Positions 6,266 to 57,466 of a stretch of DNA of 64,000 bases are shown piece by piece. Below the pieces are notes generated by a model. It had not been told where the DNA came from. It saw only the letters and a program-made list of their open reading frames with translations, and did not search any database. Origin of the DNA: Bacilli bacterium. GTDB lineage: Bacteria; Bacillota_I; Bacilli_A; RF39; UBA660. Location of the stretch: positions 4,327-68,326 of the forward strand of contig JAFRHI010000019.1 in assembly GCA_017433415.1 (NCBI GenBank), written 5' to 3'. Position numbers and translations under genes: made by a program. Numbering within the stretch: the stretch's first letter is position 1; each line of letters starts with the position of its first letter.

Positions 6266-6392
6266 TACAAAAAAGACTCAAGATAACTTGAGTCTTTAAA
6301 AGTTATCTTATAGATCTAGCATTACCACCTAACTTAATAGGTTGGTGTGACTTCTTAGGGCTAGTCCCTCCATCACTCTTTATAAGATGTAA
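6266..6392 (-). promoter_or_regulatory. SAM-I (S-box) riboswitch with terminator/antiterminator expression platform
   Basis: Minus-strand RNA: UCUUAUAAAGAGUGAUGGAGGGACUAGCCCUAAGAAGUCACACCAACC..UUAGGUGGUAAUGCUAGAUCUAUAAGA. This is followed by GACUCAAGUUAUCUUGAGUC plus a U-run. AAGAUAACUU can pair with AAGUUAUCUU as an antiterminator. Confidence 0.85.
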
Positions 6393-40559: not shown

Positions 40560-40648
40560 AATATCACCATAATTATCTTATCAAATAATTATCATAAAAC
40601 GCTACTAAAAATAATTTAATTATGTTAAAATTATACTAGGTGAAGTAT

Positions 40649-41242
40649 ATGAAAAGAAAAAATGATTTATTTTTCATTATTATCTTTATAGTAGTAGTTA
40701 TGCTGTCGCTTACCTATTTAGCTAGATCATCTTATTCAAAATACAGAAAACGAGTAACAGGTAATGTAAATGCTCAAATAGCCAGTTGGAAAATTAAAAT
40801 AAATAATGAAACTGTACAAAATAGTGGTGAATTATCCAACGATATCACCCCAACTCTTGATAGTGATATCTATACTAAAGAAGGCGTTCTAGCACCAGGA
40901 GGAACTGGTTATTTTGATGTTGTTATAAATGCTACTGATGTTGATGTTGATTTCACTTATGAAATGACTGCTGAAGTAAATGAATTAACTCCTCTAACTG
41001 ACTTAGAAATAATAAAATATAAAATTGGCGATGTTGAAACAAATTATTCCATTAACAACAAAATAACTGGAGATATCGCTAAAAACACTGGCGATACAAG
41101 TATAAGAGTCTTCTTCAAATGGAATGATGATTCCCAAACTGAAACAATGGATAATGAAGATGATACTATATATGCAGCCAGAAGTACTAATGCAAATACT
41201 AAAATAAAAGTAACCTTTAAATTCACCCAAAAACAATCTTAA
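40649..41242 (+). CDS. TasA/camelysin-like secreted protein with SipW-type signal anchor
   Basis: TM then SYSKYRK. ASWKIKIN...LAPGGTGYFDVVINATDVDVDFTYEM. The ATG at 40649 follows GGTGA. Confidence 0.55.
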   Translation: MKRKNDLFFIIIFIVVVMLSLTYLARSSYSKYRKRVTGNVNAQIASWKIKINNETVQNSGELSNDITPTLDSDIYTKEGVLAPGGTGYFDVVINATDVDVDFTYEMTAEVNELTPLTDLEIIKYKIGDVETNYSINNKITGDIAKNTGDTSIRVFFKWNDDSQTETMDNEDDTIYAARSTNANTKIKVTFKFTQKQS

Positions 41243-41308: not shown

Positions 41309-42760
41309 TCATCTTAAAAACTCATTCTCACATGTTAAATTTATTTTTAAATCCTTAAGAGCTTTCTTATCACTATCAGTAACAATATATGTAGCGTGAG
41401 CATCAACACCATTTAACTTGGTTAATTGTGATAATGCTTTAGCTGCTAGTGGATTAGTAACCGAACAAATACTAAGAGCCGTTAAAACCTCTTGTAAAGT
41501 AAGCCTATCACCCGTACCCATTTCTTTCTTTAATTTTAATATTGGCTCTAAAATAGTTGGAGCTAATAAATATATATCATCCGGTATTTTACTTAAATGC
41601 TTAATAGCATTTAAAACAACACTACCAGCTGGTGTAAGTAAATCAGTCTGTTTTCCCGTAATAATCTTTTTACCCACTTTCAAAGCAATAACTGGTAAGT
41701 TTTCTTTTTTACTTTTTTCAAGCGCTGGCTTTACTACATCTAAATATGATTCATCTATTTTCAATTCATTCATCAAAAGTTTAATCTTCTTATAAGTATT
41801 TTCATCACAAAGACCAATCTTATAATTGTTCATTTCATTATAATAACGTCTAACAATTTCCTTTTTACAAGCATCTTCAACAACTTTATCATTGGTAATA
41901 CAAAAACCAACCATATTAACACCCATATCCGTAGGTGAATTATAAATGTCTTTTTTAGAAACTTTACCTAAAATATTTTTTAAAATAGGAAAAGTCTCAA
42001 TATCACGATTATAATTAATAGCTGTCTTTTTATACTTTTCCAAATGAAATGGATCGATCATATTAACATCTTCTAAATCAGCAGTAGCTGCTTCATATGC
42101 CAAATTAACAGGGTGTTTAAGAGCTAAATTCCAAACTGGAAAAGTTTCAAATTTTGCATATCCAGCATTAACTCCTCGTAAATTTTCATGATAAATTTGC
42201 GAAAGACATGTAGCTAATTTCCCACTACCAGGGCCAGGAGCATTAACAAGAACAAGTGGTTTAGTTGTCTCAATATAGGGATTAGCTCCATACCCTTCCT
42301 CACTAACTATAGTATCAACATCCGTAGGATACCCTTTAGTAAAAGTATGAATATAAGTCTTTATTCCATTACGATTTAACTTTTTAATAAAAGTATCAAC
42401 ACTTGCTTGATTCTTATATAAAGTAATTACAACACTATTTACTAAAAAACCCCTCTTTTTTGACTCATTAATTAATCTTTCAACTTCTACATCATATGTA
42501 ATACCATACTCGCCACGAGTTTTATTTTTTTCAATATCACCAGCATTAATACAAAAAATAATTTCTAGGTCATCCTTAAGCTCTTGAAACATACTTATTT
42601 TAACATCACTTTTAAATCCTGGTAATATTCTAGCAGCATGAGAATCATCGAAAAGTTTTCCACCAACTTCTAGATACAATTTATCAAAAAGTTTAAATCT
42701 CTCTCTAATTTTTTTACTTTGAATTTTTACATATTTTTTATTATCAAAACCTTTTCTCAT
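41309..42760 (-). CDS. DUF1846 (UPF0371) family protein
   Basis: MRKGFDNKKYVKIQS...LYLEVGGKLFDDSHAARILPGF matches the conserved UPF0371 N-terminus as recalled. The track start at 42850 is an upstream extension. Confidence 0.65.
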   Translation of the reverse strand: MRKGFDNKKYVKIQSKKIRERFKLFDKLYLEVGGKLFDDSHAARILPGFKSDVKISMFQELKDDLEIIFCINAGDIEKNKTRGEYGITYDVEVERLINESKKRGFLVNSVVITLYKNQASVDTFIKKLNRNGIKTYIHTFTKGYPTDVDTIVSEEGYGANPYIETTKPLVLVNAPGPGSGKLATCLSQIYHENLRGVNAGYAKFETFPVWNLALKHPVNLAYEAATADLEDVNMIDPFHLEKYKKTAINYNRDIETFPILKNILGKVSKKDIYNSPTDMGVNMVGFCITNDKVVEDACKKEIVRRYYNEMNNYKIGLCDENTYKKIKLLMNELKIDESYLDVVKPALEKSKKENLPVIALKVGKKIITGKQTDLLTPAGSVVLNAIKHLSKIPDDIYLLAPTILEPILKLKKEMGTGDRLTLQEVLTALSICSVTNPLAAKALSQLTKLNGVDAHATYIVTDSDKKALKDLKINLTCENEFLR

Positions 42761-42846
42761 AACATCACCACTCTTATTAATCATACACCAAAAACAACTG
42801 TTTTGTCTTCTTTTTAAGAATAATTTAAAAAAAAGATAGTTCCCTA

Positions 42847-43581
42847 TCAATTTTCTTGTTCAACACTTACATTCATTTCTATAACCAAACAGGGAAGATT
42901 AGTACTCTTTTCATAAATACCGCATTGTGTCCCAAAATAAGTATCCGCATCATCCTTTGCCAAATAAAGTTCATTCTTTAAATTATTATATGCTGTATCA
43001 TTCGCAACATTTACTAAAGAATAAGTATCATTATTTAATAAATAATATTCAAAAGATGAGTCATACTGATATACATCTAACACTTTAAAATAAACAGGAT
43101 TTACACTATCAAAATCCCAACTTACTGCCGTAGTAAACTCTGCTACATCATTAACATTTAATCTCATCTTATTAGCACTAATATCAATAACAAATGGATA
43201 AGCTGTCTTTAAATAATTAATTTTATCCGTTATTCCACTTAGGTTAACTGTATTACCAAACATTGTGACATTAGTAATTTCATAATTTAAAACTGCCGTA
43301 ACATCACTATGATTATAAATTGTAATAACTTTTGAAAAATCATCCATCCCTGGTTTCATTGAAACATCAATAACAAAGTTTCGTGAAGAAACACCATTAC
43401 TATCTTTAAAATCAACATCCCAAGAAGCAACAGTACCATCTATTTCTAAACCTGCATTAGCTGAAAAAGCAAACCACGCAAAAATATTAACGCCAAACGT
43501 AAATAGCGCTAAAAGCAAAGCTACATACTTTTTTCTAAGTAATGCTTTACGCCAATTTTTGCCTTTCTTTTTCTTTTTCAT
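42847..43581 (-). CDS. TasA/camelysin-like secreted protein
   Basis: Lys-rich N-terminus plus TM. VASWDVDFKD...MKPGMDDFSKVITIYNHSDVTAVLNYEI. Confidence 0.55.
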   Translation of the reverse strand: MKKKKKGKNWRKALLRKKYVALLLALFTFGVNIFAWFAFSANAGLEIDGTVASWDVDFKDSNGVSSRNFVIDVSMKPGMDDFSKVITIYNHSDVTAVLNYEITNVTMFGNTVNLSGITDKINYLKTAYPFVIDISANKMRLNVNDVAEFTTAVSWDFDSVNPVYFKVLDVYQYDSSFEYYLLNNDTYSLVNVANDTAYNNLKNELYLAKDDADTYFGTQCGIYEKSTNLPCLVIEMNVSVEQEN

Positions 43582-43592
43582 CTAACCATCCC

Positions 43593-44192
43593 TTAAAGAA
43601 TTTCTATATCATCATCTTTTTTCTTTTTTTCTATTTTTCTAATCTCATTTTTTTCTACTTTTAATTCAATAACTGTTTCTGTAACCTCTAAAGCAATAAC
43701 TAAAACTAATGGACAAAACACCAATAAGAAAAATCCCACTTGACTCTTAACTGCATGATTTAGCCAGGTAACAACCGGTACTATTCCAGTTACTTTACCA
43801 AGAATTTGATTAGGAGTAATGCTAGGATCTTCTACATCTGACTTTACACCTTTAGTCGTAAAAATACGACCAGATCCTTCATCTTCAATACGAATAATCC
43901 TATGTGTAATTAATTTACCTTCCAAGGATCCATCACCTTGATATGCAACATCATCCCCAACTTTTAACTTATCAGTATCATAATCAGCAACTAATATTAC
44001 ATCATTAATATCATAAACACCAGCCATTGACCCAGTCGCAACAGTAAATACTCTATATCCAAAAATACTCTTATTACCGGTAATTCGCTGAATCAAAATA
44101 AAACTTAAATATAAAATAATTATTGTGAGAAAAGAATATTTAATTACTCCATATCCTATTTTAAAAAATTTATTATCTAATATTTTTTTCAT
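43593..44192 (-). CDS. sipW: SipW-type (archaeal/ER-type, S26B) signal peptidase I
   Basis: FGYRVFTVATGSMAGV (catalytic Ser), LITHRIIRI (catalytic His), FTTKGVKSDVEDP. Compared with B. subtilis SipW FGYRMYSVLSGSMEP / VTHRIV / TKGDNN. Confidence 0.8.
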   Translation of the reverse strand: MKKILDNKFFKIGYGVIKYSFLTIIILYLSFILIQRITGNKSIFGYRVFTVATGSMAGVYDINDVILVADYDTDKLKVGDDVAYQGDGSLEGKLITHRIIRIEDEGSGRIFTTKGVKSDVEDPSITPNQILGKVTGIVPVVTWLNHAVKSQVGFFLLVFCPLVLVIALEVTETVIELKVEKNEIRKIEKKKKDDDIEIL

Positions 44193-45323
44193 TTAACCAT
44201 CTCTTCTTAATTTAGTCAAAATATCTTCAAGATGCTTATTTTCTCTATCTAATCGATTATCAATAATCTTAAAAATATTTTTAGATTTTTTAATATTTTG
44301 TTCCTTTATACTAACTAATTGCTTATTAAACAATTCCTTTAATTTATCTTCAGTTAATTCACTATCAGTATCTAACAGATTATCAACCAATCTCTTAAAC
44401 ATTAAATTAATAATCTCAGTCTCACTACCAGACCTACTACTACTAATGAAGTTCTTATTCGCAATATATGCCATAAGAAAAGCTTGATCATATTCATTCT
44501 TTAAAACTCCCCGATCAAAATAATCTCTCTTATCTCTTTCTCTTTTATCCTTACTTTCAAAAGATTGAATATAATTCCATAACTCTTCAGCTTTCCTAAA
44601 GTTTGGATTTTTTAAAATTACATTTGTCTTTTTTATTGGACTTCTAACTGGAGGTACATGTAATTTAGCTAGAATTGTCATTAACTCTGTCCCAAAAAAT
44701 CCATCTATTTGCGTCTTAATCATCTTAAGACGATCTTCCAAAGAAACATTACCTTTCCAGCCTAAATGTTCCTTTACTTCTTTCGAACTATCAAGTAAAT
44801 CAACAGATATTTTCAAGTCTTCTCCATGTACTTTAGTATTAGCCTCATATTGCAAAACATTCTTATCTAAACAATATGACTCTCCACTAGATTCTTCTAA
44901 TCTTTGCTCAAAAAACAATCTCAAATTATTTAATAAAGTAAAAATAAATCTATTTTCATAAGTATCTAAACTTTCCTCTTTATTAATATTTAAAATCTTT
45001 GAAGGTTTAACATCACCATTATCTTCAATTTTTTGAATCAAATTAGTATGTTGTGTCAAATGAATAACAGACTCAACCGTAACTTTTCTTGATAATTCAA
45101 CTTTAACTATCTCTTCTTCATTAATAATGAAACGTTTAGGATTACGTAAAATATTATCAATATATGGTAATACATCTTCTATTTTATCTACCCATTCATA
45201 GTCAAGGAACTTTAAATCATAATCCCTTTTTATGAACAAAGTAGAATTAAGATTATTTAAGAATAAATCTTCATCATCTAATTCTTCATCTTCTTCTAAC
45301 TTTTCAAGTTCCTCTTCTTCCAT
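44193..45323 (-). CDS. McrC-N-terminal/DUF2357-like protein without recognisable nuclease domain
   Basis: Acidic N-terminus. LDTYENRFIFTLLNNL helix resembles the TYENRF(V/L)K signature recalled for DUF2357 partners of McrB-type NTPases. The C-terminus is all-helical with no D..(D/E)xK motif seen. Confidence 0.4.
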   Translation of the reverse strand: MEEEELEKLEEDEELDDEDLFLNNLNSTLFIKRDYDLKFLDYEWVDKIEDVLPYIDNILRNPKRFIINEEEIVKVELSRKVTVESVIHLTQHTNLIQKIEDNGDVKPSKILNINKEESLDTYENRFIFTLLNNLRLFFEQRLEESSGESYCLDKNVLQYEANTKVHGEDLKISVDLLDSSKEVKEHLGWKGNVSLEDRLKMIKTQIDGFFGTELMTILAKLHVPPVRSPIKKTNVILKNPNFRKAEELWNYIQSFESKDKRERDKRDYFDRGVLKNEYDQAFLMAYIANKNFISSSRSGSETEIINLMFKRLVDNLLDTDSELTEDKLKELFNKQLVSIKEQNIKKSKNIFKIIDNRLDRENKHLEDILTKLRRDG

Positions 45324-45336
45324 AAAGGCCTCCTAA

Positions 45337-46863
45337 CTAAACCATTTTCTTAAGTCTTAATAAATATTCTTTACATTCATTAAAGTTTTCTTTACCAAAA
45401 CTCTTATCCAAAAACTCAATAAATGGATCAATTTCATCACGAATATAAGCTAAGTTCAATTGTTCAAACTTTCTTAAAATCTTTCTTGCTATATAATAGT
45501 CAACTCCATCAACTTCACTACCACCACATGCAACATATGTCGCAACAAAATCTCGCATCTGCTTAACAATACGGTTACCAAAAGCTATTCGGAAATGTTT
45601 AATTACATAATCATCCATTTCCTCAATCTTCTTCTCCATCTCACTAGATAATGGATATTTACTTTTAGCTTCTGCAAATAAACCTTCTAGATATGAACTA
45701 TTAATATTCATTGCTTCAGTATCAACAGGTTCAAACACTTGACCCTTATCATTAATATCAATTGGCATAGCACGGTCATATACTTTATCAGTAACTGCGA
45801 ATGTTGAATCATCGTTATTGATTGTTCCAATATACCACATATTACCAGGTATTTTTAATTTACCAGAATCTAATCTAACTGGATCACTTTCCCAAGTACT
45901 AGGTACAAGTTCAATTATCCACTCATCTCTTGAAGGCATTTCAAGAATAGATAACATTTCGGCAAAGTAATACTCAACACGTGCAATGTTCATTTCATCT
46001 AGTACTGTTACATAAACATCATCAGTATAACCAGCTAAATACATTCCCTTTAATACTTCTGTTTCATTAAATTTCTTTGTAAATTCATTAAAATAACCAA
46101 AAAGTTCAGTTCTATCACGCCAAGATGGCTGAACAGAAGCAATTATTGCATCATTCTTTATAAATTTACCCCAAGCATAAGCAAGCGAAGTTTTACCTGT
46201 ACCAGAAATACCTTGTAAAATTACTAACTTAGTAGCAGATAATCCCGAAATAAATAATCTAATCATATTAGTCGTATAATAAAGATGTAATTTAGAAGCC
46301 GCAAAGTTTCTAAATAATTCAACTAATTCTTCTAATGTAAAATGATTATCATAATTCTGAATCTTATAATCTTTAAATTCTAAATCAATAGCATGTAACT
46401 TAGAGAATCTAAAGTCTCCCTCTTCTAATACTTCTTCATCCTTAACATCTGCCTCTTCAACAGTATCTTCCTCTCCTGGTTTTAATCCAAGTTGTGATAC
46501 TTTCATTGCTAAAATTTTCTCTTTTTCTTGTACTAAAGAAGCCACTTCTTTATTAAGTTCTCCAACTTCTTCTAATAATGATTCTTGTTCAACTAGTGTC
46601 TTTCTAAACTTAAGATACTTTTTAACTAAGAAAACAATTAGAAGTATAAATAATCCTAATAAGACTAATATCACTATAATAGCTAAAATGACTAAAACCC
46701 ATTCTCCACCAGAAAAGTCTTTTCGGTAAAACTCAATAGTATACAAATATTCACTAATATTAAACATTTGCACAACACCTTTAACTACTCCACCTAATAT
46801 AAGACCAATACCTTTAAAGAATACTGACATAAATTCGAATAGAAATCTTATAAATGTATCCAT
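45337..46863 (-). CDS. membrane-anchored, coiled-coil McrB-like AAA+/GTPase
   Basis: Two N-terminal TM helices, then a coiled coil. Walker A GISGTGKTS, SVQPSWRDRTELFGYF, Walker B VLDEMNIARVEYYFAEMLSILE, GTINNDDSTF (NxxD position). The ATG at 46863 follows GAGGAGGAG. Confidence 0.65.
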   Translation of the reverse strand: MDTFIRFLFEFMSVFFKGIGLILGGVVKGVVQMFNISEYLYTIEFYRKDFSGGEWVLVILAIIVILVLLGLFILLIVFLVKKYLKFRKTLVEQESLLEEVGELNKEVASLVQEKEKILAMKVSQLGLKPGEEDTVEEADVKDEEVLEEGDFRFSKLHAIDLEFKDYKIQNYDNHFTLEELVELFRNFAASKLHLYYTTNMIRLFISGLSATKLVILQGISGTGKTSLAYAWGKFIKNDAIIASVQPSWRDRTELFGYFNEFTKKFNETEVLKGMYLAGYTDDVYVTVLDEMNIARVEYYFAEMLSILEMPSRDEWIIELVPSTWESDPVRLDSGKLKIPGNMWYIGTINNDDSTFAVTDKVYDRAMPIDINDKGQVFEPVDTEAMNINSSYLEGLFAEAKSKYPLSSEMEKKIEEMDDYVIKHFRIAFGNRIVKQMRDFVATYVACGGSEVDGVDYYIARKILRKFEQLNLAYIRDEIDPFIEFLDKSFGKENFNECKEYLLRLKKMV

Positions 46864-46864
46864 C

Positions 46865-47911
46865 CTACTCCTCCTCAAAAACTAACAACTTTAATCCCTC
46901 TGCTTCATAATTAACAAAATAATCACGTTCTCGATCACGATATTTTAAAACTAATAAATAATTAAATATTCCTTCTTTATAAATATCTTCAACCTTCTTA
47001 TAAATATCATTAATATGTGAAAAATCCTGAATACAAGCAAACTGAAAATCCTCAGAAAAAGCATCCTTATGAGCTAAATAATTAGTATAATTAACACCCA
47101 TTATTACATATTTACGAAATAGAGGATTATCAATTAATAAATATATTTCTCGACTTATTATCCCCCTACTAATACTACTATCATATAAATCAATAAATAT
47201 TGGTTTTATTTCTTCCTTATTAAGAACTTTTTTAAGGAGATATAAAGATACCTTTTGAATTAAACATTTAAGTTTTTTTACCTCAAACTTCTTATCATTA
47301 AATATTCTATTAATCATAACTCTCTTATAATTATCTAAAATACGTATATCCCATTTTAAAGAAATATATTCTATCTCACTACTAATAAATTTCTTCTTCT
47401 CTAATGAATAAAACTCATCTTCATAGTTTAATAATTTATTAGAATTAGTATTTGTCTCCTTAACAAGAGTAACTAATTTACTTAATCTATTACCTATCAA
47501 ATCATTAAGAATAGAGCTTTCATTAACTATAGTTGAAACCCTACTCTCTAAATCTTCTCTATCCGTACTATTTAAATCATCTAATTTAATTATTTCAAAA
47601 GAAACATCACGAAGATCTCTAATAATTTTCATATTTTCTGCAAATTCTGCATTACTAACTCTTAATTCATAATTTCTGTAATCATCCATCATATCAGACA
47701 TTACACCATTAAGTTCAACTTGTAATGTTTCTAAACTATATGTATCAGTATCAACCGTATTAAAAATACCATAATAATAATTATCAATATAAGTATCAAA
47801 ATACCCTTTGAAGACTTCACGAATAAACTTAGAATCTTCATAAATTAAAGTACCATACTCTATAAGTCTATCAACTTTATAGTTCATATAAATTGTTATT
47901 AAGTTATTCAT
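46865..47911 (-). CDS. hypothetical cytoplasmic 348-aa protein, first gene of the McrB-like module
   Basis: No TM and no recognisable motifs. Its stop is 1 nt from the next start. Confidence 0.5.
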   Translation of the reverse strand: MNNLITIYMNYKVDRLIEYGTLIYEDSKFIREVFKGYFDTYIDNYYYGIFNTVDTDTYSLETLQVELNGVMSDMMDDYRNYELRVSNAEFAENMKIIRDLRDVSFEIIKLDDLNSTDREDLESRVSTIVNESSILNDLIGNRLSKLVTLVKETNTNSNKLLNYEDEFYSLEKKKFISSEIEYISLKWDIRILDNYKRVMINRIFNDKKFEVKKLKCLIQKVSLYLLKKVLNKEEIKPIFIDLYDSSISRGIISREIYLLIDNPLFRKYVIMGVNYTNYLAHKDAFSEDFQFACIQDFSHINDIYKKVEDIYKEGIFNYLLVLKYRDRERDYFVNYEAEGLKLLVFEEE

Positions 47912-47943
47912 GAAATCACTACCTTATCTCAAATTATATCATA

Positions 47944-48876
47944 TTAACTAGCTTTCTGAACAGTAACATTAATAATAGACGTATTATTAACAATTGGATA
48001 TGTATAATCCTCACTCATATCATCTTTATAAAAAATAATCGAACTACTAGAACTAGGATTAACCTTAAAAGAAAATTTCTTAACATATGTAAATCCATTT
48101 ATTTGTTCTGTATCATAATTAGTACTAAGTCTATGTAAATATAAATCATTTGTCATATCAACAAACAAATCATGGGGATCATATTCTACTGTTACAATTG
48201 CTGAAAAGCACTTATCCTTATCACTAGCACTAAGTTCACCATAATCTGCTAAACTAATATGATCTCCTACACTATAACTACCGAATGCCTCACTAACTTC
48301 ATAATAAGCAATAGAATTAATAAAGTTAATAGTCATGTATTTAGCACCAGCACTATCCTTTATATTATAAGAGAAATCACTATTTAAAACCTCAATAGTA
48401 TAAGTAGCACTCATACTCTTTCTATAAGGAGCAGAAGAAGTAACCGAAGTCTGAACAACAACACTATCCCCTTCATAAAAGTTTCTCTGTGGAGTAACCG
48501 TAATCTGATAAGTATCCGTACCATCTTCTGGTCTAATAACACCACTTGTCTTATTTAATGTACAAATAACATCACTAGAACATTCTACATCAATACTATA
48601 ACTAATATCTGTAGTCGTATATCTAGTAGAATTCTTACGATTATTCAAATCAATAGTAAGAGTATATGAGTTAACTCCATCCCAGTTACTAATAGACATT
48701 CTTTTATCATTAACCTTTAAAATACTACTATTAAAATAAAATGCCTTAGTTTCTAATATATAATTATTAACAATATTTTTTATATATCTACCAAAAGTAA
48801 ATTCAATTAATAAAACTACAATCAAAACACTCATAATAGATATACTAATAACTTTATGTTCCCTAATAAACTTCAT
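47944..48876 (-). CDS. secreted protein with SipW-type signal anchor (TasA-operon paralogue, larger)
   Basis: TM then FTFGRYIK. Beta-rich Ser/Thr-rich sequence. Confidence 0.45.
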   Translation of the reverse strand: MKFIREHKVISISIMSVLIVVLLIEFTFGRYIKNIVNNYILETKAFYFNSSILKVNDKRMSISNWDGVNSYTLTIDLNNRKNSTRYTTTDISYSIDVECSSDVICTLNKTSGVIRPEDGTDTYQITVTPQRNFYEGDSVVVQTSVTSSAPYRKSMSATYTIEVLNSDFSYNIKDSAGAKYMTINFINSIAYYEVSEAFGSYSVGDHISLADYGELSASDKDKCFSAIVTVEYDPHDLFVDMTNDLYLHRLSTNYDTEQINGFTYVKKFSFKVNPSSSSSIIFYKDDMSEDYTYPIVNNTSIINVTVQKAS

Positions 48877-48884
48877 AGCTCCTC

Positions 48885-49487
48885 CTATATCATCTGTTCT
48901 GAATGTAGATTTACTTCTATATTTTCAATACTATTAGCATAAGTAATATCATTAGCATAATTAAGAGGAAATTCAATAACTAATGAATAAACATCAGTAG
49001 TTTGACTACTATAATCAAGTTCATACTCCCCATCTACATTATAAATCTTATACCAAGCACCATCTTCATCATTAGCTGTCCTAGCTCCTTGAATTAGATT
49101 AGTACAATTACTAATATCACTACAATTACGATAAAGTTCCACAGTAATAGGTAAATTAGTAGTAGTAATAACTTTTAAATTATAAAGAAGATCAACATCA
49201 CTAGTCTTACTCTCATTAAAATTAGCCACAGAAAATCTATAAGTATATTTACCATTCTTTGGAATAATACCCTCTGGATCTAAATTAAAACTCATATCTC
49301 CGGCTTCAAAAATATATAAAGCTTGATCAATATCAGAATAAATACTAGCTTGTACTTCATATCTAGCATAAGCAATTCTAAGTAAATAAACAGCTAAAAC
49401 AAGTATTAAAAATAATCCAGCACCAAAAATGAGAAACCTTTTTTTCTCATCAAAATAAGAAATATTTTTAATACTAATATTCTTCAT
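48885..49487 (-). CDS. TasA/camelysin-like secreted protein
   Basis: TM then AYARYEV. IIPKNGKYTYRFSVANFNESKTSDVDLLYNLKV. Confidence 0.55.
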   Translation of the reverse strand: MKNISIKNISYFDEKKRFLIFGAGLFLILVLAVYLLRIAYARYEVQASIYSDIDQALYIFEAGDMSFNLDPEGIIPKNGKYTYRFSVANFNESKTSDVDLLYNLKVITTTNLPITVELYRNCSDISNCTNLIQGARTANDEDGAWYKIYNVDGEYELDYSSQTTDVYSLVIEFPLNYANDITYANSIENIEVNLHSEQMI

Positions 49488-49491
49488 TAAA

Positions 49492-50100
49492 TCACTCCGT
49501 ATAAGGAACTAATGTTTCTCCTCTATATTGAACTGCATGAAAATGAATTTCAAATAAATCTTCAAAAGAAGGACTTTCATAATCATCAGTAATCACAATA
49601 TCATTTAAATAATCAAATATAAAATCAGCACTTATATTAACCTTTTCCCCATCTTCTATATCATCCATTGTAACAATACCACTATAAGTGTCTCTTGCCG
49701 TTCTAACAATACCACTATCAGCTGTAATATTATTAAAAGTTAAAACCTTATCATCATCAATTCTTTTATCAATAAATTGAAAACTATACATTACAGCTAC
49801 ATCAGACTGCGTAGGATCAAGTTCCAAATAAACAGTTCCATAACTACCAGGAGATATTTTACCATCTCTAGTATGCGTAGAAGTCCAAGTAACATTATTT
49901 ATTATAATTTGATCAGAAAGTGTCCCATCACCAGTAACACTAATCCCATTAATATACAACTTAAATTTAGCAGTTGGTACCTTAGAATTACCTTCTACCA
50001 AGGATTCATAAGCAGTATAAGTAGTACTAGCACCTAAATATAAAAAACAAACTATCAATAAAACAATAAAAACAATTGTAAATTTCTTATTATCTTTCAT
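49492..50100 (-). CDS. TasA/camelysin-like secreted protein
   Basis: The ATG at 50100 follows GGAGTAGG. TM then TTYTAYES. ISPGSYGTVYLELDPTQSDVAVMYSFQF. Confidence 0.55.
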   Translation of the reverse strand: MKDNKKFTIVFIVLLIVCFLYLGASTTYTAYESLVEGNSKVPTAKFKLYINGISVTGDGTLSDQIIINNVTWTSTHTRDGKISPGSYGTVYLELDPTQSDVAVMYSFQFIDKRIDDDKVLTFNNITADSGIVRTARDTYSGIVTMDDIEDGEKVNISADFIFDYLNDIVITDDYESPSFEDLFEIHFHAVQYRGETLVPYTE

Positions 50101-50166
50101 ACCTACTCCTACTCTAACATTATAACAAATAAACAAAAGAAAATAAACACTTCATATGTTTATATT

Positions 50167-51057
50167 TTATATTAAAAAATATTCTCTTGCCATGATCCTT
50201 GAATCAGAACAATATTTTATTACATACTTATTATCATATTTACAAATAATTATCCCTATAGTCTTATCGTGATTAATATTTCTTAAACTTTCATCTATAT
50301 AATTCATATATATTTGTATCTGACCTACATATTCTTTCTTAATCTCAGTCACTTTAAGTTCTATTACTACAAAACAATTAAACTTATAATTAAATAGTAA
50401 TAAGTCAATATAATTATACCTATCACCAATTTTAATTTTATATTCACTACCTATAAAACTAAATGAATCACCAAGTTCTCTCATAAATGATTCAATATCT
50501 TCTAATATTAATTGATGTAATACTTTCTCTGTTATTACCTCTATATTATTCTTATTTCTAATTAAAATAGGATTAGGTACCAAATCTTTTACTTCAATTT
50601 TTTCTTTAGATATTAATTTATCCTTAGTTTCATTAGGCAATCTTTCATACTCCCTATTTTTAATTATCTCTTCTAATTGTCTTTTAGAAAGATTTCTTTT
50701 TTCTATTTGCTTAATATAATAATAGATTGTTGCAGTATCTTTTAATGGAATAAGAATTAAATAATGTGACCATGTCAATTGTGTCACCAGTGGTGACACT
50801 TTTTCATCATTAAACAAATTATATAATTGCTTCATCCTAAACAAAGTTCTTTTATTATATTTTTTACCAACTTCAACAACCAACTTCTTAGAATATTCCC
50901 CTATTATATTATCTCCATATTTTCCACCAGCTTCATTAAGTAATTTACCTATTTCAAAGTATGTAATAACCCTATTTCTTTCTTTAGAATAGTCTTTTAC
51001 TTTTGAATATATCTCATTATCAATTAATTTTTCTTTTATCTCTTCATAGTAATTCAT
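50167..51057 (-). CDS. DUF1016 / YhcG-like PD-(D/E)xK nuclease family protein
   Basis: LTWSHYLILIPL ... YIDLLLFNYKFNCFVVIELKV (D..ExK core). The ATG at 51057 follows GAGGAGAG. Confidence 0.7.
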   Translation of the reverse strand: MNYYEEIKEKLIDNEIYSKVKDYSKERNRVITYFEIGKLLNEAGGKYGDNIIGEYSKKLVVEVGKKYNKRTLFRMKQLYNLFNDEKVSPLVTQLTWSHYLILIPLKDTATIYYYIKQIEKRNLSKRQLEEIIKNREYERLPNETKDKLISKEKIEVKDLVPNPILIRNKNNIEVITEKVLHQLILEDIESFMRELGDSFSFIGSEYKIKIGDRYNYIDLLLFNYKFNCFVVIELKVTEIKKEYVGQIQIYMNYIDESLRNINHDKTIGIIICKYDNKYVIKYCSDSRIMAREYFLI

Positions 51058-51091
51058 ATCTTCTCTCCTCAATTTATTATTCAAAAGAAAA

Positions 51092-51130
51092 AAATATTTA
51101 TCCAACAAAAAAGTAGGATTTCTCCTACTT
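51092..51130 (-). terminator. terminator hairpin, copy A of a near-identical ~38-nt repeat
   Basis: Minus strand: AAGTAGGAGAAATCCTACTT then TTTTGTTGGATAAATATT. Matches 57429..57466 apart from one mismatch/indel. Confidence 0.7.
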
Positions 51131-51311
51131 TTAAATTCTAAAGCTATTATTCAAAACAATAATTTAGCCACTAAAAAATCATATCCTGTTTATTTCAATA
51201 TATACTTTCTTATGATAATTATCTCATCTGAACAATATTCAATTAAGATTATCTTTAGCTTGACAACTTTTATGCGTAGTAAGTTACTAACTTATCCTTA
51301 ATTTATTCTTG

Positions 51312-51875
51312 CTACCTACTTTTTAATTTTTTCTTTAAATCATTTATCGCTAATGATCTTGCGCTTATATTATTCTTTTCATCAGAAGAAAGTTCAGCCA
51401 ATGTTAATCCACTTGGCAATTCAAATATTTCATCAAATCCAAACCCATTACTTCCCCTACATTCTTTAGAAATAAAACCATTTAATATTCCTTGACCAAC
51501 TACTTCTTGCTCTCCATCATAGTAAACTAAACAACATATCACCTGAGCACTTCTGTCTTCATGTTTATTTACTTCATTGATTAAATACTCATTTCTCATT
51601 CTATCTGTAGCATCATCACCTAAAAATCTGTGTGTCATAACACCAGGAAATCCATTTAAAGAATTAATACACAAACCAGAATCATCAGCAATAATCTCCT
51701 CATGAGAAACCTCATATATTTCTTTAGCTTTCTTCATTGCATTTCCTAAAAATGAATCTCTATCTTCTTCAACATCTACATTTATATTTTTATCTTTTAA
51801 AGAATATATTTCATAATCTGTTAATATTTTTCTAATTTCTTCCAATTTACCTTTATTATTAGTTGCTAAAATCAT
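51312..51875 (-). CDS. rdgB: non-canonical purine NTP pyrophosphatase (RdgB/HAM1)
   Basis: ATNNKGKLEE, DDSGL, GFGFDEIF motifs. Confidence 0.85.
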   Translation of the reverse strand: MILATNNKGKLEEIRKILTDYEIYSLKDKNINVDVEEDRDSFLGNAMKKAKEIYEVSHEEIIADDSGLCINSLNGFPGVMTHRFLGDDATDRMRNEYLINEVNKHEDRSAQVICCLVYYDGEQEVVGQGILNGFISKECRGSNGFGFDEIFELPSGLTLAELSSDEKNNISARSLAINDLKKKLKSR

Positions 51876-51911
51876 AATTACGCACCTCTTATTAATATTA
51901 TTTTTAGTTTT

Positions 51912-53132
51912 TTACATTAAAATTCTTTTTAATTTTTTACCTTTAGGAGAATCCAATATTTTAACTATTAAATTTTCATCTTGAATAAACGGTTCACTTA
52001 ATATTTCAATATCTTGAAATCTACTCTCCACAATCCTAAAAAAATCAATTAATCTTTCAGTTTTATTTTTGCTTATTATATCTTGTTTATCAACTACTTT
52101 ATCATATACTTCTTTTGTTTGTTCATAACCTGAATCATCAGATGTAAGTCTACCTTCACTAATTGCTTTTTCAAGTATAGCCATTTTTTGTTTATATACA
52201 TTACTCCTACTTATATGATAATCATAATCAAATAATTGTAATAATGGAACTTTAATATCATATATTCCATTTTCTCTTAATATTTTAATAAAAAATTCAA
52301 GAGCTAAAATATACTCATAATTGTATCTTATTTGTTTTTTTATATCTATCAAGGAATCAGCAATTTTTCTATCACTAGGCCAAATTGTGTATTTAGTTGC
52401 TTGAATTGCATAGATATAACAAATTTTCTTACCATCCTCGTTAATTATTTCAAAATAAATTTGTGGAAGAGGGAATCTTATTTTTATAAAAGAATCATTT
52501 TCAACATCGTCTTGAATAAAAATTGACACTTTTCTATTACTTTCACAAAAAGCACCTGCTGAGTCAAAACGATAACAAACATAGTAATTATTTAAATCAC
52601 ATAAATATGTTTCTTCATTATATTCTTTTTCAAAATATCTAGGTACATGAAAATATTTACTTTCGTTAAATGATATTTGACGCTCTAAAAATTTATAAAC
52701 ATTATCAAAATCTCCAGCTGACATTCTAATCCAAATACCATTTAAAATTGGAAAAATATAATTATCACCAAATTCTTCTTTTAATGAATCATTTAGCCCA
52801 TTTAATAAATCATTAAATCTAACAATATCATCTATATAAATATAATATGTATTATCATCTTTATTATATAAATATTCATCTCTATTTCTTTTTAAAACAG
52901 AAAGTACATATTCTACATCATCATTATATATGAAATAACCTTTTTTATTATTAATTTCTAGAATGTTATTTTTTACTTTTCTTTTAATTAAGTATTCAAT
53001 TAAATTAATATCCTCTAAGCTAAAAACAAATTTTAAATTTTTAGGGAATTCAAAATAATCGCGATTTTTAATAGCAACACTTATAAATATAAAATACAAT
53101 AATAAATCTACATTTTTATCCTTCATTTTCAT
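51912..53132 (-). CDS. hypothetical 406-aa protein
   Basis: ORF with GAGGGGTGG RBS. No recognisable motifs. Confidence 0.5.
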   Translation of the reverse strand: MKMKDKNVDLLLYFIFISVAIKNRDYFEFPKNLKFVFSLEDINLIEYLIKRKVKNNILEINNKKGYFIYNDDVEYVLSVLKRNRDEYLYNKDDNTYYIYIDDIVRFNDLLNGLNDSLKEEFGDNYIFPILNGIWIRMSAGDFDNVYKFLERQISFNESKYFHVPRYFEKEYNEETYLCDLNNYYVCYRFDSAGAFCESNRKVSIFIQDDVENDSFIKIRFPLPQIYFEIINEDGKKICYIYAIQATKYTIWPSDRKIADSLIDIKKQIRYNYEYILALEFFIKILRENGIYDIKVPLLQLFDYDYHISRSNVYKQKMAILEKAISEGRLTSDDSGYEQTKEVYDKVVDKQDIISKNKTERLIDFFRIVESRFQDIEILSEPFIQDENLIVKILDSPKGKKLKRILM

Positions 53133-53223
53133 AGCAACCCACCCCTCAAAGTTAGGCTATATTCTATCATATTTTTTAATAAATTACTAATAAATTTTCA
53201 ATTAATGATACTATCTGATATTT

Positions 53224-53937
53224 TTATATCCACAAATCTCCTTTTAAAGGTTTAAATTTATACCTTTGACTCGGCCTATAGCCATTTTTTTCACTATTAG
53301 AAGAGGCAACTTTCTCACAATATTTAATAATTTTTTTTCTAAAATTCGACTTATCCACACTGCAATCTTTTATTAATTCATATACAATTCTTACGTCTTC
53401 TAAAGTAAAACTAGCACCCATAAATTTAAATATAATATCGGTACTATCAATATTATTTCTAATACGCTTATAGCTTATTAATAAATTCATTAATGTTCTC
53501 TTAATTTGCTCATCTTTAATTTTTATATCATGTATATATTCAATGTTATTGTTATCTTCTAATTCAATAGTTTTATATTGATACTCTTTATTATCTAGAA
53601 TAATTAAGCTATTACTTTTAATTTCAAAATCTACAAGTTTATAATCTTTTTTTAGTCTACTAATATTATCAATATTTGTTACACCTAGATAAATAATATC
53701 TATATCACTTTTATAATCCATTGTGTAGACTTGTTCTAAGTGAAAAATATTACTACCTATAATACTAGAAATATTATTTCTAACTTGTTTTTTTATCTCA
53801 TTACCCTTAATACTAATTGTAGGCAGTTCATTATTGTTATTGACTAATACTTTTAATTTTTTTACATCATTTTTTCTAATATTATCATTCTTTTCACTGT
53901 CTAATACGAATAGACAACTTACTAGATTTATTTGCAT
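53224..53937 (-). CDS. NrtR-like regulator (degenerate Nudix-like N-domain plus winged-helix C-domain)
   Basis: C-terminal FTLEDVRIVYELIKDCSVDKSNFRKKI...GYRPSQRYKFKP matches the NrtR wHTH signature (..NFRRK...RPaxlYrF). No Nudix box in the N-terminal half. Confidence 0.55.
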   Translation of the reverse strand: MQINLVSCLFVLDSEKNDNIRKNDVKKLKVLVNNNNELPTISIKGNEIKKQVRNNISSIIGSNIFHLEQVYTMDYKSDIDIIYLGVTNIDNISRLKKDYKLVDFEIKSNSLIILDNKEYQYKTIELEDNNNIEYIHDIKIKDEQIKRTLMNLLISYKRIRNNIDSTDIIFKFMGASFTLEDVRIVYELIKDCSVDKSNFRKKIIKYCEKVASSNSEKNGYRPSQRYKFKPLKGDLWI

Positions 53938-54475
53938 ATTCAAGCAACTCCTTACTAATAGTATCTGAAACTTCTAAAAGAAAAGAAGCAAAATTATCAA
54001 AATTTAAATATTTAGTATTTCCTTCTTTTTTTTGCTTTAGACATTCTATATTGTATTTTAACTTTTCTTCCAAAATTTTGCAATCATACTGACTTAATAT
54101 ATTTTCTAATTTACCAATATTTAATTTAAATCTATTAACAAGTAAAAAATTTAAATAATCATAATCTTTGTAAATAGCACCATCTAAAAATATATTTATA
54201 TTTGGATATAAATATTCTAAATAGTCATTTAAATAATGCTTATCTAAAAGCAAGTGCGTAAAGTAACCAATATTTAAATCATTACTAAAATCAAGGTTTT
54301 GTAAAAAGTATTCTATATCAGGTACCATATAAACACCACTTTGCACTTTTTGGTGACTATCTTCCATATCTATAATATCAGGAAGTAGATTTCCCTTAAT
54401 AAATTCATCACTATTTAAATTTAACCTTTTAGCAACTTCCTTAGCAATTATCATATGTGCACTTATATTAGGCAT
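53894..54475 (-). CDS. putative metal-dependent hydrolase (zinc-dependent phospholipase C-like fold?)
   Basis: MPNISAHMIIAKEV...GNLLPDI...SH...FTHLLLDKH His/Asp pattern. Weak assignment. Confidence 0.3.
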   Translation of the reverse strand: MPNISAHMIIAKEVAKRLNLNSDEFIKGNLLPDIIDMEDSHQKVQSGVYMVPDIEYFLQNLDFSNDLNIGYFTHLLLDKHYLNDYLEYLYPNINIFLDGAIYKDYDYLNFLLVNRFKLNIGKLENILSQYDCKILEEKLKYNIECLKQKKEGNTKYLNFDNFASFLLEVSDTISKELLEYANKSSKLSIRIRQ

Positions 54476-54497
54476 ATTATCTACTTCCCTTCACAAA

Positions 54498-54908
54498 TTA
54501 TTTTATATTATCAATTATCTCCTTTACTTTCATTGTTTCTTCTTCTAATGATAAGCCAGTGCAATCTACCATAAACAACTTATCACCCAAAAAATTTTTT
54601 TGTTTCATATATAAATATGTTTCTAAATATAAAAGATTATATAGATAAGCATATTTATCATATTCATCAACTGTCTCGCGTAATTGTATTCTTCTTTCCA
54701 ATTCAGCTCTATCATTATTAATTAAAAATATTACATAGTTTTTATTTGTATCTAAGTACTTTTTAAGTTTATTTGCTCTATCTACTAGTGATACATTAAA
54801 GTCAAATAACTTACATATATTTTTATCACGATCAAGTAATTCATAATCACTTAAATTATTTATTACACTTGTTTTACCAACTGCATCTGTTCCTTCTAAT
54901 ATTATCAT
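54498..54908 (-). CDS. small P-loop nucleoside/nucleotide kinase-like protein (136 aa)
   Basis: MIILEGTDAVGKTS resembles the EGxDGxGKT(T/S) motif of dTMP / deoxynucleoside kinases. Confidence 0.5.
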   Translation of the reverse strand: MIILEGTDAVGKTSVINNLSDYELLDRDKNICKLFDFNVSLVDRANKLKKYLDTNKNYVIFLINNDRAELERRIQLRETVDEYDKYAYLYNLLYLETYLYMKQKNFLGDKLFMVDCTGLSLEEETMKVKEIIDNIK

Positions 54909-54921
54909 ATATTATCCTCTT

Positions 54922-56208
54922 TTAAAGTTTTATTAAATCTTTATCTTTCCTACCAATTCCTATAAAAGCAATTTTTTCTTTTGTTTCTTTTTCAATGTAA
55001 TTAATATATTCTTTTAATTCTTTTGGAATATTATTTTTATTAATATTATCAATATTCCCCCATCCTTTAAATTCAATATAATGAGGTTTTAATTTTTTTA
55101 ATTCTTCAACATCATCTGGCATAACATATATTTTTTCATTCATATCATTTAGATAATAATCACACACTTTTACAACTTCTAAATCTTGCATAATATCCAA
55201 TTTATTTAATATTAATTTAGCATTTTTATGTCCTATTAATGATTTTTTTAATGTTGGCAAATCAAACCATCCTAGTCTTCTTTTCATATTTTCAGCATCG
55301 TCTACTTCTGAATTATACTTATATAACTTATTTGCATCTTTTTCATCCATTTCAGTTAGAAATGGTCTTTTATTCAAGCAACAAAAATATCCAGTAATTA
55401 TAACATACATTTCATTTAAATAGTAAGGACTAATATTTGCACCATTTAATAAAGAATTTATACTAGTTGAAGCACTAGTTGTAAATGGATTAAGTCCATG
55501 TAAATTATCTAACATAATTCCGTTACAACCTTCTATAAGAACATTTGCACTAGACTCTATATTATATAAGAAATTACTATAATCTTTACAAAAACTACCT
55601 ATCATCTTTTCTATTTGAATAAAATCTTCAATAAGACTTTCAGCCTCAAGTTTAAAATAATCATCTTTTTTATCTTGATAAAATGATTTATCTAATTCAT
55701 AACAAGATTCTTTTATTTTTCCAACCAACATATCAAACGAAATATTATTATTTATAACATTTTTTATATCAATTAGTTTAACTGAATGTCTAGCATCTCT
55801 TGCGATTACTGCATTTCCTGTTCCTTGATTTGTACTACCATATTTTTTTGAATGATTTTGACTCTTATTTCTATCAATATAAGGATTTATAAGTAAACTT
55901 ATACTTGATGCTATTGTTATATTATTATATATTTTATATAAATCGTTCCTGCTTTCTAATTCCAATCTTAATGCATGTAAGTTTAACACTGCACCAGGAG
56001 CAACAACAAACTTAATATTTTCTTTACCAAATACTGATGGCAATTGTTTTGTTACAAAACTTTTTCCATCTTCTAATACTACAGTATGTGAAGCATTAGT
56101 AGATGCATTAACTCTAAAAATATAATCATAATTTTTACCTAAATTAGAAACAATTTTTCCTTTTCCTTCATCACCATATAATCCACCAACTATTACATCA
56201 ACTCTCAT
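54922..56208 (-). CDS. highly divergent adenylosuccinate synthetase (PurA)-family ligase
   Basis: GGLYGDEGKGKIV (cf. GTQWGDEGKGK), NASHTV (cf. NAGHT), GSTNQGTGNA (cf. GTTGRGIGPA), IEGCNGIMLDNLHG (cf. FEGAQGTLLDIDHG), KRRLGWFD (cf. RRRTGWLD). The TTGR and STRVG motifs are not conserved. Confidence 0.65.
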   Translation of the reverse strand: MRVDVIVGGLYGDEGKGKIVSNLGKNYDYIFRVNASTNASHTVVLEDGKSFVTKQLPSVFGKENIKFVVAPGAVLNLHALRLELESRNDLYKIYNNITIASSISLLINPYIDRNKSQNHSKKYGSTNQGTGNAVIARDARHSVKLIDIKNVINNNISFDMLVGKIKESCYELDKSFYQDKKDDYFKLEAESLIEDFIQIEKMIGSFCKDYSNFLYNIESSANVLIEGCNGIMLDNLHGLNPFTTSASTSINSLLNGANISPYYLNEMYVIITGYFCCLNKRPFLTEMDEKDANKLYKYNSEVDDAENMKRRLGWFDLPTLKKSLIGHKNAKLILNKLDIMQDLEVVKVCDYYLNDMNEKIYVMPDDVEELKKLKPHYIEFKGWGNIDNINKNNIPKELKEYINYIEKETKEKIAFIGIGRKDKDLIKL

Positions 56209-56719
56209 ATTTTTTCTCCTTTAATTCATTAATATAATCAATTATTTCTTCTTCATTATTTACAAATTTAATTTCTATATTTTTATTTAATTGTTTACAA
56301 GTTAGAATTGGAAACCAGTATTCTCCTTCAACTTCGTAACTTGTTACTTTTGGATCACAAAATATAACTATTTTCTTTTGCTTAAAAGCAGCATATATTA
56401 TTTCTGTTACTGAAGCTATTGCTGAATTTTTTGTTAAATTAGCAACAACTAGATCACACCTATCTATTTGTTTTAATTCTTCACTTACTACATTTTCACA
56501 AACCGTTTTATTAACATCTTGCTTTTCATAATAAAACCCTCCAACATACATAACATTTTTATTCTTTTCAATAATTACACCATCAGAAGCATAAACTGTA
56601 TCTTTAACACTTCCAACAATTTTACTTCGCATATCATCTTTCAACATTTCTAATACATTTTCTTCATTAATCATTTCATGCCTAACTTTGTATGTTCCTG
56701 AATAAAATAATTTAATCAT
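56198..56719 (-). CDS. nucleoside 2-deoxyribosyltransferase-like (NDT/SLOG fold) protein
   Basis: YVGGFYYE ... DLVVANLTKNSAIASVTEIIYAAFKQKKIVIF resembles the NDT GTxxE(I/L)GYA helix. Confidence 0.45.
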   Translation of the reverse strand: MIKLFYSGTYKVRHEMINEENVLEMLKDDMRSKIVGSVKDTVYASDGVIIEKNKNVMYVGGFYYEKQDVNKTVCENVVSEELKQIDRCDLVVANLTKNSAIASVTEIIYAAFKQKKIVIFCDPKVTSYEVEGEYWFPILTCKQLNKNIEIKFVNNEEEIIDYINELKEKKYES

Positions 56720-56720
56720 A

Positions 56721-57275
56721 TCATTTTTGTCCTTTCATAATTTTATTCCAGTTTATATAAGATACAACAGCCATAAATGTCCAAATAATATTTAATGCGA
56801 ATAAATATAATGCTTGATCAGGAAGAATAAAATATTCTACTGCATAAAAAATATTATTAATAAACCAAATTATCCAAGTATCAATTTTCTTTTTCATCAT
56901 ATAATAAGTAGCAATTAAACTAGATATTGTTGTAAATGAATCAAGTAATGGTAATGGATCATCTGTATTTTTAAGAACAATACTTAAAATAATTGTTCCT
57001 AAAGTAATTAACAAAATATAAATTATTTTTTCCTTTGTACTTGCTTTAGTTATTTTACTTGATTCTTTTCTATCATTCCAAAGTATAAATCCTACTATAC
57101 CCATAGCAAAATAAATACTATTATTAGCTATGTCACCATATAAATGATTTATAGCTGAAAATAATAACAAGAATAACATCTGCAAAATATAGAATATCCA
57201 ATTACTCCTTTTATTAAGCATTACTAATACTCCTTGTATTAAGCCAAATACTGTGGCTCCTATTTCAAAAATCAT
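56721..57275 (-). CDS. pnuC: PnuC-family nucleoside (nicotinamide riboside-type) transporter
   Basis: About 7 TM in 184 aa. WIIWFINNIFY motif. Promoter is TTGACA, 15-nt spacer, TGgTATAAT at about 57300-57330. Confidence 0.7.
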   Translation of the reverse strand: MIFEIGATVFGLIQGVLVMLNKRSNWIFYILQMLFLLLFSAINHLYGDIANNSIYFAMGIVGFILWNDRKESSKITKASTKEKIIYILLITLGTIILSIVLKNTDDPLPLLDSFTTISSLIATYYMMKKKIDTWIIWFINNIFYAVEYFILPDQALYLFALNIIWTFMAVVSYINWNKIMKGQK

Positions 57276-57428: not shown

Positions 57429-57466
57429 AATATTTATCCAAAAAAAAGTAGGATTTCTCCTACTTA
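57429..57466 (-). terminator. terminator hairpin, copy B of the ~38-nt repeat
   Basis: Minus strand: AAGTAGGAGAAATCCTACTT then TTTTTTTGGATAAATATT. Overlaps the stop codon of the 57464 gene. Confidence 0.7.

Follow-up and report, generated by a model that had tools for sequence, protein, structure and literature searches.

McrBC is the textbook modification-dependent restriction motor. In Escherichia coli, the DUF2357 domain of McrC acts as a plug in the McrB ring, whose GTP hydrolysis it stimulates. An arrangement that departs from this scheme has been named CoCoPALM by Bell et al. (eLife 2024; PMC11090510, section 7), in one paragraph with no analysis, which is deferred to "a separate, forthcoming publication". 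It combines an McrB-like GTPase of the NxD branch that carries an FtsB-like transmembrane (TM) segment and coiled coil, an McrC homologue with DUF2357 and a coiled coil, and genes of the signal peptidase family (PMC11090510). NxD is the NxxD signature shortened by one residue, usually followed by D or E. It defines a major McrB branch, and the CoCoPALM clade was placed among CoCoNuT-like type IV systems (PMC11090510). CoCoPALM is not treated in the supplement text of Bell et al. Our literature search found no later paper using the name, no paper mentioning the PADLOC candidate PDC-M26, and no paper linking McrB to SipW; the two are co-mentioned only in E. coli strain genotypes. Here we analyse a cluster of this kind in a 64,000-nucleotide (nt) stretch of a Bacilli bacterium (the window; contig JAFRHI010000019.1, positions 4,327 to 68,326, forward strand). 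The cluster encodes an McrB-like GTPase (g10), an McrC-like partner (g09), a third protein (g11) and a SipW-type signal peptidase, set among secreted proteins.

Judged by its genes, the window cluster is a member of the named but unstudied CoCoPALM class, and nothing contradicts membership. Since the class already has a name, the claim to novelty is reduced, and the original prediction, made from the sequence of this stretch, was wrong to state that it knew of no description of the arrangement. New with respect to Bell et al. are a third, EAL-like candidate partner, genes related to cyclic di-GMP (c-di-GMP), SipW fusions, and core-gene behaviour in reduced-genome gut Bacilli. In the reading that we consider probable, the cluster encodes a membrane-anchored, nuclease-less McrBC derivative that is driven by NTP and possibly linked to c-di-GMP. 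It would regulate or power the SipW-dependent assembly of surface proteins, and would not act in restriction or abortive infection. The central genes are as follows.

46865-47911, minus strand: g11, predicted cytoplasmic partner of 348 amino acids (aa); in an AlphaFold2 (AF2) model, residues 1-161 form a helical bundle and residues ~165-348 a degenerate EAL-like (beta/alpha) barrel.
45337-46863, minus strand: g10, McrB-like GTPase of the NxD branch, 508 aa counted from the ATG, predicted to be membrane-anchored.
44193-45323, minus strand: g09, McrC-like partner of 376 aa with a DUF2357 N-domain, nuclease-less.
43593-44192, minus strand: sipW, signal peptidase I of the archaeal/ER type, above the TIGR02228 cutoff.

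The coordinates of the first three genes and their tight packing (1-13 nt, with sipW at 0 nt) had been described at the outset and are borne out by inspection of the open reading frames (ORFs) and junctions. Only 1 nt separates the g11 stop from the g10 ATG, and a Shine-Dalgarno sequence, GAGGAGGAG, lies within the final g11 codons. The g10-g09 spacer is 13 nt long and contains AGGAGG, and the g09 stop abuts the sipW start with a 0-nt gap (TAAATG). No terminator-like site was found on the minus strand in 44193-50136; the sole minus-strand site from the scan lies within g07 (43512-43487), the gene directly 3' of sipW. The promoter scan is uninformative in this AT-rich DNA (81 sites vs 82 expected). 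The coupled junctions count for one operon.

Close relatives were taken from a scan of one genome per GTDB species, in which at least 472 species have a relative, and the best 80 loci were compared. These come from gut and rumen metagenome-assembled genomes labelled "Bacilli/Mollicutes/Tenericutes" and include one closed chromosome of 1.26 Mb. Five records (L001, L017, L028, L046 and L051) are titled Muribaculaceae, Acidaminococcus fermentans, Lachnospiraceae or Oribacterium; the cluster is low in GC, and these are probably mis-binned or mislabelled contigs. The gene order g12-g11-g10-g09-sipW-g07 is kept among the 80 loci. SipW, g09 and g10 are present in 80/80, with sipW adjoining g09 in every one, while g07 is found in 79/80 and g12 in 74/80, and an ORF of g11 size stands at the same position in 77/80. 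All cluster ORFs are full length in the 80 species. The GTPase is the most conserved gene of the cluster, with a median identity to the window of 70.8%, compared with 47.3% for the McrC-like protein, 40.9% for SipW and 32-45% for the secreted proteins. In 20/21 loci its conservation equals or exceeds that of g01, a methyltransferase-like gene nearby (the g01 counterpart in L083 matches Pfam Methyltrans_SAM). The cluster is flanked by housekeeping genes. The synteny, the slow evolution of the GTPase and the flanks together suggest a vertically inherited core machine and not a mobile defence island. A tblastn search against plasmids and phages returned no full-length relative, just partial matches to the ATPase core at up to 37% identity, and a prophage or plasmid origin was rejected for this reason. 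A decaying pseudogene cluster was likewise rejected, by the full-length ORFs and intact motifs.

By profile comparison, g10 is an McrB homologue but not an equivalog. A profile search aligns residues 198-370 with the AAA+ core of E. coli McrB (PDB entry 6hz4, E 2.4e-5). The NCBIfam McrB equivalog is matched at E 5.9e-6 with 25.3 bits against a cutoff of 637, and Pfam AAA_5 gives 15.7 bits, below its cutoff of 22. The check proposed with the original prediction thus places the 508-aa protein with McrB. A further match, to the PADLOC candidate PDC-M26A (E 7e-37), covers chiefly residues 178-315. The McrB-type motifs first noticed in the window are general to its relatives: Walker A GISGTGKTS occurs in 80/80 orthologues and GTINNDDS, the NxD signature, in 79/80, and the form G-T-x-N-x-D-[DE]-S is found in 122 of 150 representatives clustered at 50% identity. 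Walker A, Walker B and the NxD[D/E]S signature are all intact in g10.

The N-terminus of g10 consists of a TM segment and a coiled coil, and no DNA-binding domain was found there in the family scans. In 80/80 orthologues there is a very strong TM segment, at ~58-82 (Kyte-Doolittle 3.7). The segment at 5-35 is only marginally hydrophobic and rises above threshold in 28/80, so that of the two TM helices first proposed one stands firmly and the other is doubtful. The coiled coil, ~88-125, is assigned from heptad-like sequence alone, and the AAA+ core spans ~180-507. After the TM comes KKYLKFRK, and this puts the AAA+ core on the side of the cytoplasm. Residues 65-116 give faint matches to FtsL (E 0.066) and DivIC (E 0.28), both sub-threshold. 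The predicted anchor of the protein is an FtsB/FtsL-like TM and coiled coil, and the AAA+ core is predicted to be cytoplasmic.

The partner g09 matches Pfam DUF2357 (E 1.9e-10, 40.8 bits vs a cutoff of 23.3), in agreement with its first assignment as an McrC-N/DUF2357 partner. Conservation among 70 orthologues (31-93% identity) is concentrated at residues 44-133 and 222-250. After residue 133, that is, in the C-terminal half, no Asp or Glu is conserved across these 70 sequences, which excludes a PD-(D/E)xK site and makes g09 nuclease-less, as had been proposed. The AF2 model of g09 is mediocre, with a predicted local distance difference test (pLDDT) value of 69 from a shallow alignment (at least 69% identity). 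Its 50-residue C-terminal helix (325-375) is better defined, with pLDDT 84-88. A Foldseek search of this pLDDT-69 model against the PDB found no nuclease, just noise such as TolC. A Pfam scan of seven relatives found no nuclease domain either, and the McrC-like partners of distant loci show DUF2357. No PADLOC model matches g09 or g11, so the models of the two PDC-M26 components are not both matched.

The CoCoPALM traits can now be compared directly. The window shows the NxD signature, the SipW association and a DUF2357 McrC-like protein with a long C-terminal helix; for the FtsB-like TM and coiled coil, the strong TM is found throughout the close set, and the FtsL and DivIC similarity is sub-threshold. 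With E. coli McrBC (PDB entries 6hz4, 6ut6 and 7vsr) the cluster shares an AAA+ GTPase core with Walker A and B motifs and an Asn/Asp signature, together with a ring-stimulating type of DUF2357 partner. It differs in that a TM and coiled coil replace the N-terminal DNA-binding domain of McrB, the signature is NxD and not NxxD, the McrC-like protein has no PD-(D/E)xK, and the predicted complex sits at the membrane, in association with a peptidase and secreted proteins. CoCoNuT and PDC-M26 systems are similar in their NxD GTPase subfamily, in having coiled coils on both subunits and in often missing the McrC nuclease. However, those systems are cytosolic, always paired with HEPN or other nucleases, and located in defence islands, whereas the window cluster has a TM anchor and carries SipW and secreted proteins where the nuclease would be. 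The early statement that this is no standard type IV restriction system, and that a membrane-tethered McrB-like protein is combined with a nuclease-less McrC-like one, is supported.

SipW of the window scores 68.6 bits against TIGR02228, over the curated cutoff of 51.85, and 75.6 against the Bacillus SipW equivalog, short of 190. Its sequence shows TM segments at 16-34 and 152-170, the catalytic Ser and His motifs TGSM and THR, and a K/E-rich C-terminal tail predicted to be cytoplasmic. Two gene fusions join the peptidase to its neighbours. In L167 (9610-12579, plus strand), one ORF of 989 aa comprises an McrC-like DUF2357 protein (E 1.7e-66), ~400 aa of E/R/K-rich coiled coil, a TM and a SipW peptidase (SipW hidden Markov model (HMM) E 1e-34; Pfam S26 above cutoff) with the catalytic Ser and His kept. 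It ends in a second TM and a K/E-rich tail, a layout consistent with SipW topology, and this locus has no separate downstream SipW. In L127 (5095-6990, plus strand), one ORF starts with a SipW-like peptidase that has the catalytic Ser and His (residues 5-156) and continues through a TM into a full-length g11-like domain (residues 279-610, E 1.7e-45). The two fusions argue for a single complex of the McrC-like protein, g11 and SipW, in which the first two lie on the cytoplasmic face.

The arrangement extends well beyond the close set. An exhaustive search of representatives at 50% identity gave 760 with E <1e-30. These share the core and vary at the N-terminus, which may consist of two hydrophobic segments (one a strong TM) and a coiled coil as in the window, several TM segments, a secreted domain and a TM, or long cytosolic coiled coils. 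A distant set of 80 loci was collected by a metagenome scan seeded with members of the window architecture, at 34-48% identity to the query P0146, and was annotated with custom HMMs; look-ups of the representatives P0146, P0161 and P0133 returned mainly short contigs. In these other environments the core reads SipW-McrB-like-McrC-like-SipW. Of the testable loci, 50/55 have the downstream SipW, and the upstream one is present in 48/67. Co-occurrence of the GTPase and its McrC-like partner with SipW, part of a check proposed at first, is found in the 80/80 close loci and, for the downstream gene, in the 50/55 distant ones.

The genes on either side of the core encode a family of secreted proteins.

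49492-50136, minus strand: g14, secreted paralogue with an N-terminal signal anchor; probably 202 aa, counted from an ATG at 50100.
48885-49487, minus strand: g13, secreted paralogue of 200 aa with a signal anchor; hhalign probability to the g14/g05 family 96%.
47944-48876, minus strand: g12, secreted paralogue of 310 aa with a signal anchor; hhalign probability to g13 95%.
42847-43581, minus strand: g07, secreted paralogue of 244 aa directly 3' of sipW; hhalign probability to the g14/g05 family 96%.
40640-41242, plus strand: g05, convergent secreted paralogue of g14, 200 aa.

All five have an N-terminal signal anchor and are mutually homologous (hhalign probabilities 81-96%). The original prediction called the upstream genes TasA-like, and this label is unproven. 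Neighbour profiles A5, A6 and A7 match nothing in the PDB, TasA included; member and consensus sequences give no TasA or Peptidase_M73 match in Pfam and NCBIfam; and hhalign against a verified TasA sequence yields probabilities of 0.9-4% and aligns no more than the C-terminal strand or the signal peptide. What remains is a weak resemblance at the junction past the hydrophobic core. At their ends the signal peptides have a TasA-like junction, T-[YFW]-A-x-[FY] (for example, STTYTAYES and FAWFAFS), to be compared with GGTWA|AFND of TasA. Distant clusters have 1-4 paralogous secreted proteins around the core with signal peptides that end in [ST]T[YF]AW[FY], and no Pfam or NCBIfam model matched these proteins. 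This motif occurs in 61/577 ORFs within 6.5 kb of the GTPase gene vs 0/47 ORFs farther out. The tapA-sipW-tasA operon of Bacillus subtilis is similar in that a SipW-type peptidase is encoded among its presumed secreted substrates, and in that the T-[YW]-A-x-[FY] junction of the window neighbours resembles that of TasA. It differs in having no NTPase; TasA self-assembles by donor-strand exchange, and the window neighbours have no detectable homology to TasA/Peptidase_M73 or TapA.

The third protein, g11, evolves fast (~30% median identity to the window) and has no family match in the Pfam, PADLOC and NCBIfam scans. By sequence, then, the first description of this protein as unrecognisable holds, but its AF2 model is confident (88 homologues, pLDDT 92.3, predicted TM-score 0.88) and EAL-like. 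In Foldseek, the C-terminal half has EAL domains (RocR, FimX) on top, with probability 0.98-0.99, E 0.013-0.1 and TM-scores of 0.42-0.48 normalised to the target. A comparison of g11 with the EAL proteins of the distant clusters by hhalign is colinear but weak (E 0.011, 4% probability). Neither a Pfam EAL match nor conserved EAL/DDFG catalytic residues are present in g11.

True EAL genes lie inside the distant clusters, which makes an EAL-like fold for g11 independently plausible. An EAL match is found in 38/80 distant loci. A stand-alone EAL protein of 250-266 aa (Pfam 4e-26 to 5e-36) is encoded two genes upstream of the GTPase, as in L139:5722-6522, L160:5625-6410 and L154:5292-6080 and 18 further distinct copies. 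Its EAL motif is degenerate in 21/21 distinct copies, reading QS[QKAST] or QL/QT with the catalytic Glu replaced. FimX and LapD are degenerate-EAL receptors, and by this analogy the loss of the catalytic Glu suggests a receptor, not an enzyme. In some distant clusters a TM-EAL gene comes immediately after the second SipW, and proteins with GGDEF-EAL and PAS domains also occur; L129:11876-13402 and L119:8774-11257 are examples of such embedded TM-EAL or GGDEF-EAL/PAS genes.

Taken as an assembly machine, the cluster would work as follows. The peptidase would replace the nuclease as the effector, or output, of an McrBC-type motor. A GTPase ring with its McrC-like adaptor would dock onto the cytoplasmic tails of SipW, and GTP hydrolysis would gate or drive the step by which secreted subunits are cleaved, released or polymerised into a surface structure. 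Control by c-di-GMP, through an EAL-type component, would be ancestral, and the machine would be a conserved, housekeeping-like one at the cell surface. A functional analogy, and only that, exists with type IV pilus control by FimX-PilZ-PilB, where a degenerate-EAL c-di-GMP receptor acts on the assembly ATPase. There too, a degenerate-EAL protein stands by a hexameric NTPase, a dedicated signal peptidase and filament-like subunits. However, the window NTPase is of the McrB family and unrelated to PilB, the peptidase is SipW-type and not PilD, and the c-di-GMP link is putative.

An assembly or export role is favoured over defence by the SipW synteny in close and distant loci, the SipW fusions, the housekeeping-like conservation and the embedded c-di-GMP genes. 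Of the two alternatives first offered for this locus, an NTPase motor co-opted for SipW-dependent secreted proteins is thus the one retained, and a defence or abortive module fits poorly with vertical, core-like inheritance. A wider and more tentative proposal, which we hold to be possible, is an uncharacterised NTP-driven surface assembly or secretion machine of monoderms. It would have an McrBC ring with SipW as effector, EAL-type (c-di-GMP) tuning and a filament or matrix built from a new subunit family, and would belong to the core genes of a large clade of gut Bacilli with reduced genomes. Such a machine would be functionally analogous to the systems of peptidase, ATPase and pilin and evolutionarily unrelated to them. 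If an McrBC derivative does drive or gate a membrane signal peptidase, this would be a clear case of exaptation of a defence NTPase for surface biogenesis. It would also offer a first way into the function of a cluster conserved in hundreds of uncultured Bacilli species of human and animal guts, and the fusions and the EAL link provide testable hypotheses of interaction and regulation for a class that so far exists as a name alone.

Several observations weigh against this interpretation. The secreted neighbours have no detectable homology to TasA or a known fibre subunit, so that "fibre" or "pilus" is an assumption, as is a filament as the product of the cluster. TasA fibres are not known to involve an NTPase in their assembly. 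The EAL assignment of g11 is weak, given the Foldseek E-values and the low hhalign probability of its model and alignment. The 80 close loci yielded neither an EAL nor a GGDEF gene, and g11 has no deeply conserved polar residue, so c-di-GMP binding may be lost in the window lineage. Each fusion is known from a single metagenomic contig. Finally, the ATPase core is homologous to a PADLOC defence candidate, and cytosolic coiled-coil relatives occur in defence islands.

The last point leads to a membrane-acting anti-phage or conflict system, in which the GTPase senses invasion and SipW and/or the secreted proteins act as effectors through surface remodelling or abortive infection. Homology to McrBC type IV restriction, the strong PDC-M26A match and the grouping of the clade with CoCoNuT-like type IV systems by Bell et al. 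(PMC11090510) all favour such a role. So does L086 (1152-7996), where a cytosolic coiled-coil relative of 763 aa (P0182) is paired with a 783-aa DUF2357 protein beside genes for an OLD-family (AAA_15/TOPRIM) nuclease, Cas02710, MazE and PIN, a defence-island context unlike the window. We nevertheless consider this reading unlikely for the window. Synteny in 80/80 species and a GTPase that evolves as slowly as g01 or more slowly are atypical for defence genes, and the flanks are housekeeping genes with no full-length relatives on plasmids or phages. No nuclease or toxin domain was found in the cluster proteins examined, g09 has no PADLOC match, and the embedded c-di-GMP genes point to regulation of lifestyle or surface.

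Less probable again, and in our view quite improbable, is a role of the pair in the cell envelope or in division, with an FtsB/FtsL-like anchor; the SipW link would then reflect general envelope biogenesis and not a dedicated fibre. The faint FtsL/DivIC similarity covers just the TM and coiled coil, a region described as FtsB-like by Bell et al. (PMC11090510), but these matches are far below threshold (E 0.07-0.28), and the cluster has no division genes. The very high conservation in small genomes, such as the closed 1.26-Mb relative, would suit this role. L088 (8001-14009) would suit it as well: a multi-TM McrB-like protein of 841 aa is paired with an McrC-like protein of 1158 aa that bears a GNAT acetyltransferase domain, among ligA/gatCAB genes and with no SipW nearby. 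By its sequence, L088 is a different membrane-bound McrBC derivative. Against this role, the clade with a TM and coiled coil nearly always adjoins SipW and paralogous secreted proteins. Incidental adjacency, that is, a decaying restriction system inserted by chance into a secretion operon, agrees with the loss of the nuclease and DNA-binding domains but is effectively refuted by the conserved synteny, the full-length ORFs in 80 species, the catalytic motifs intact in 79-80/80 orthologues, the gene order kept at 34% identity across environments and the SipW gene fusions.

Around the cluster, the window holds a further SipW-like gene.

57464-58204, minus strand: second SipW-like gene (SipW HMM E 8.6e-11), directly downstream of a giant ORF at 58241-63724 (minus strand) of at least 1827 aa.

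In the relatives L083 and L084, a 3025-aa ORF and a SipW-like gene of 190 aa immediately adjoin the cluster. The window has ~7 kb of unrelated genes (50167-57275) between the cluster and the second SipW and giant ORF, suggesting insertion or rearrangement, and the second SipW-like gene may be a displaced part of the same system. A YhcG/DUF1016 PDDEXK-nuclease gene (50167-51108, minus strand; Pfam 3e-35) borders the cluster on its 5' side; of the 80 related loci L001 alone has it, and it is probably a recent insertion. At the other end, an ORF of 513 aa (41309-42850, minus strand) overlaps the g07 stop by 4 nt and is likewise present only in L001; in the other loci, the convergent g05 comes directly after g07. 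The 513-aa protein is a putative DUF1846 member. Farther away, a SAM riboswitch (RF00162; 65.3 bits, E 6e-13) is located at 6305-6388 on the minus strand, upstream of a 260-aa ORF (5229-6011). An ORF of 186 aa (32677-33237, minus strand) has the classic N-terminus of a type IV pilin or pseudopilin, MNRKGFTFVELLATIVILGIL, suggesting that the genome also encodes type-IV-filament components, separate from the SipW cluster.

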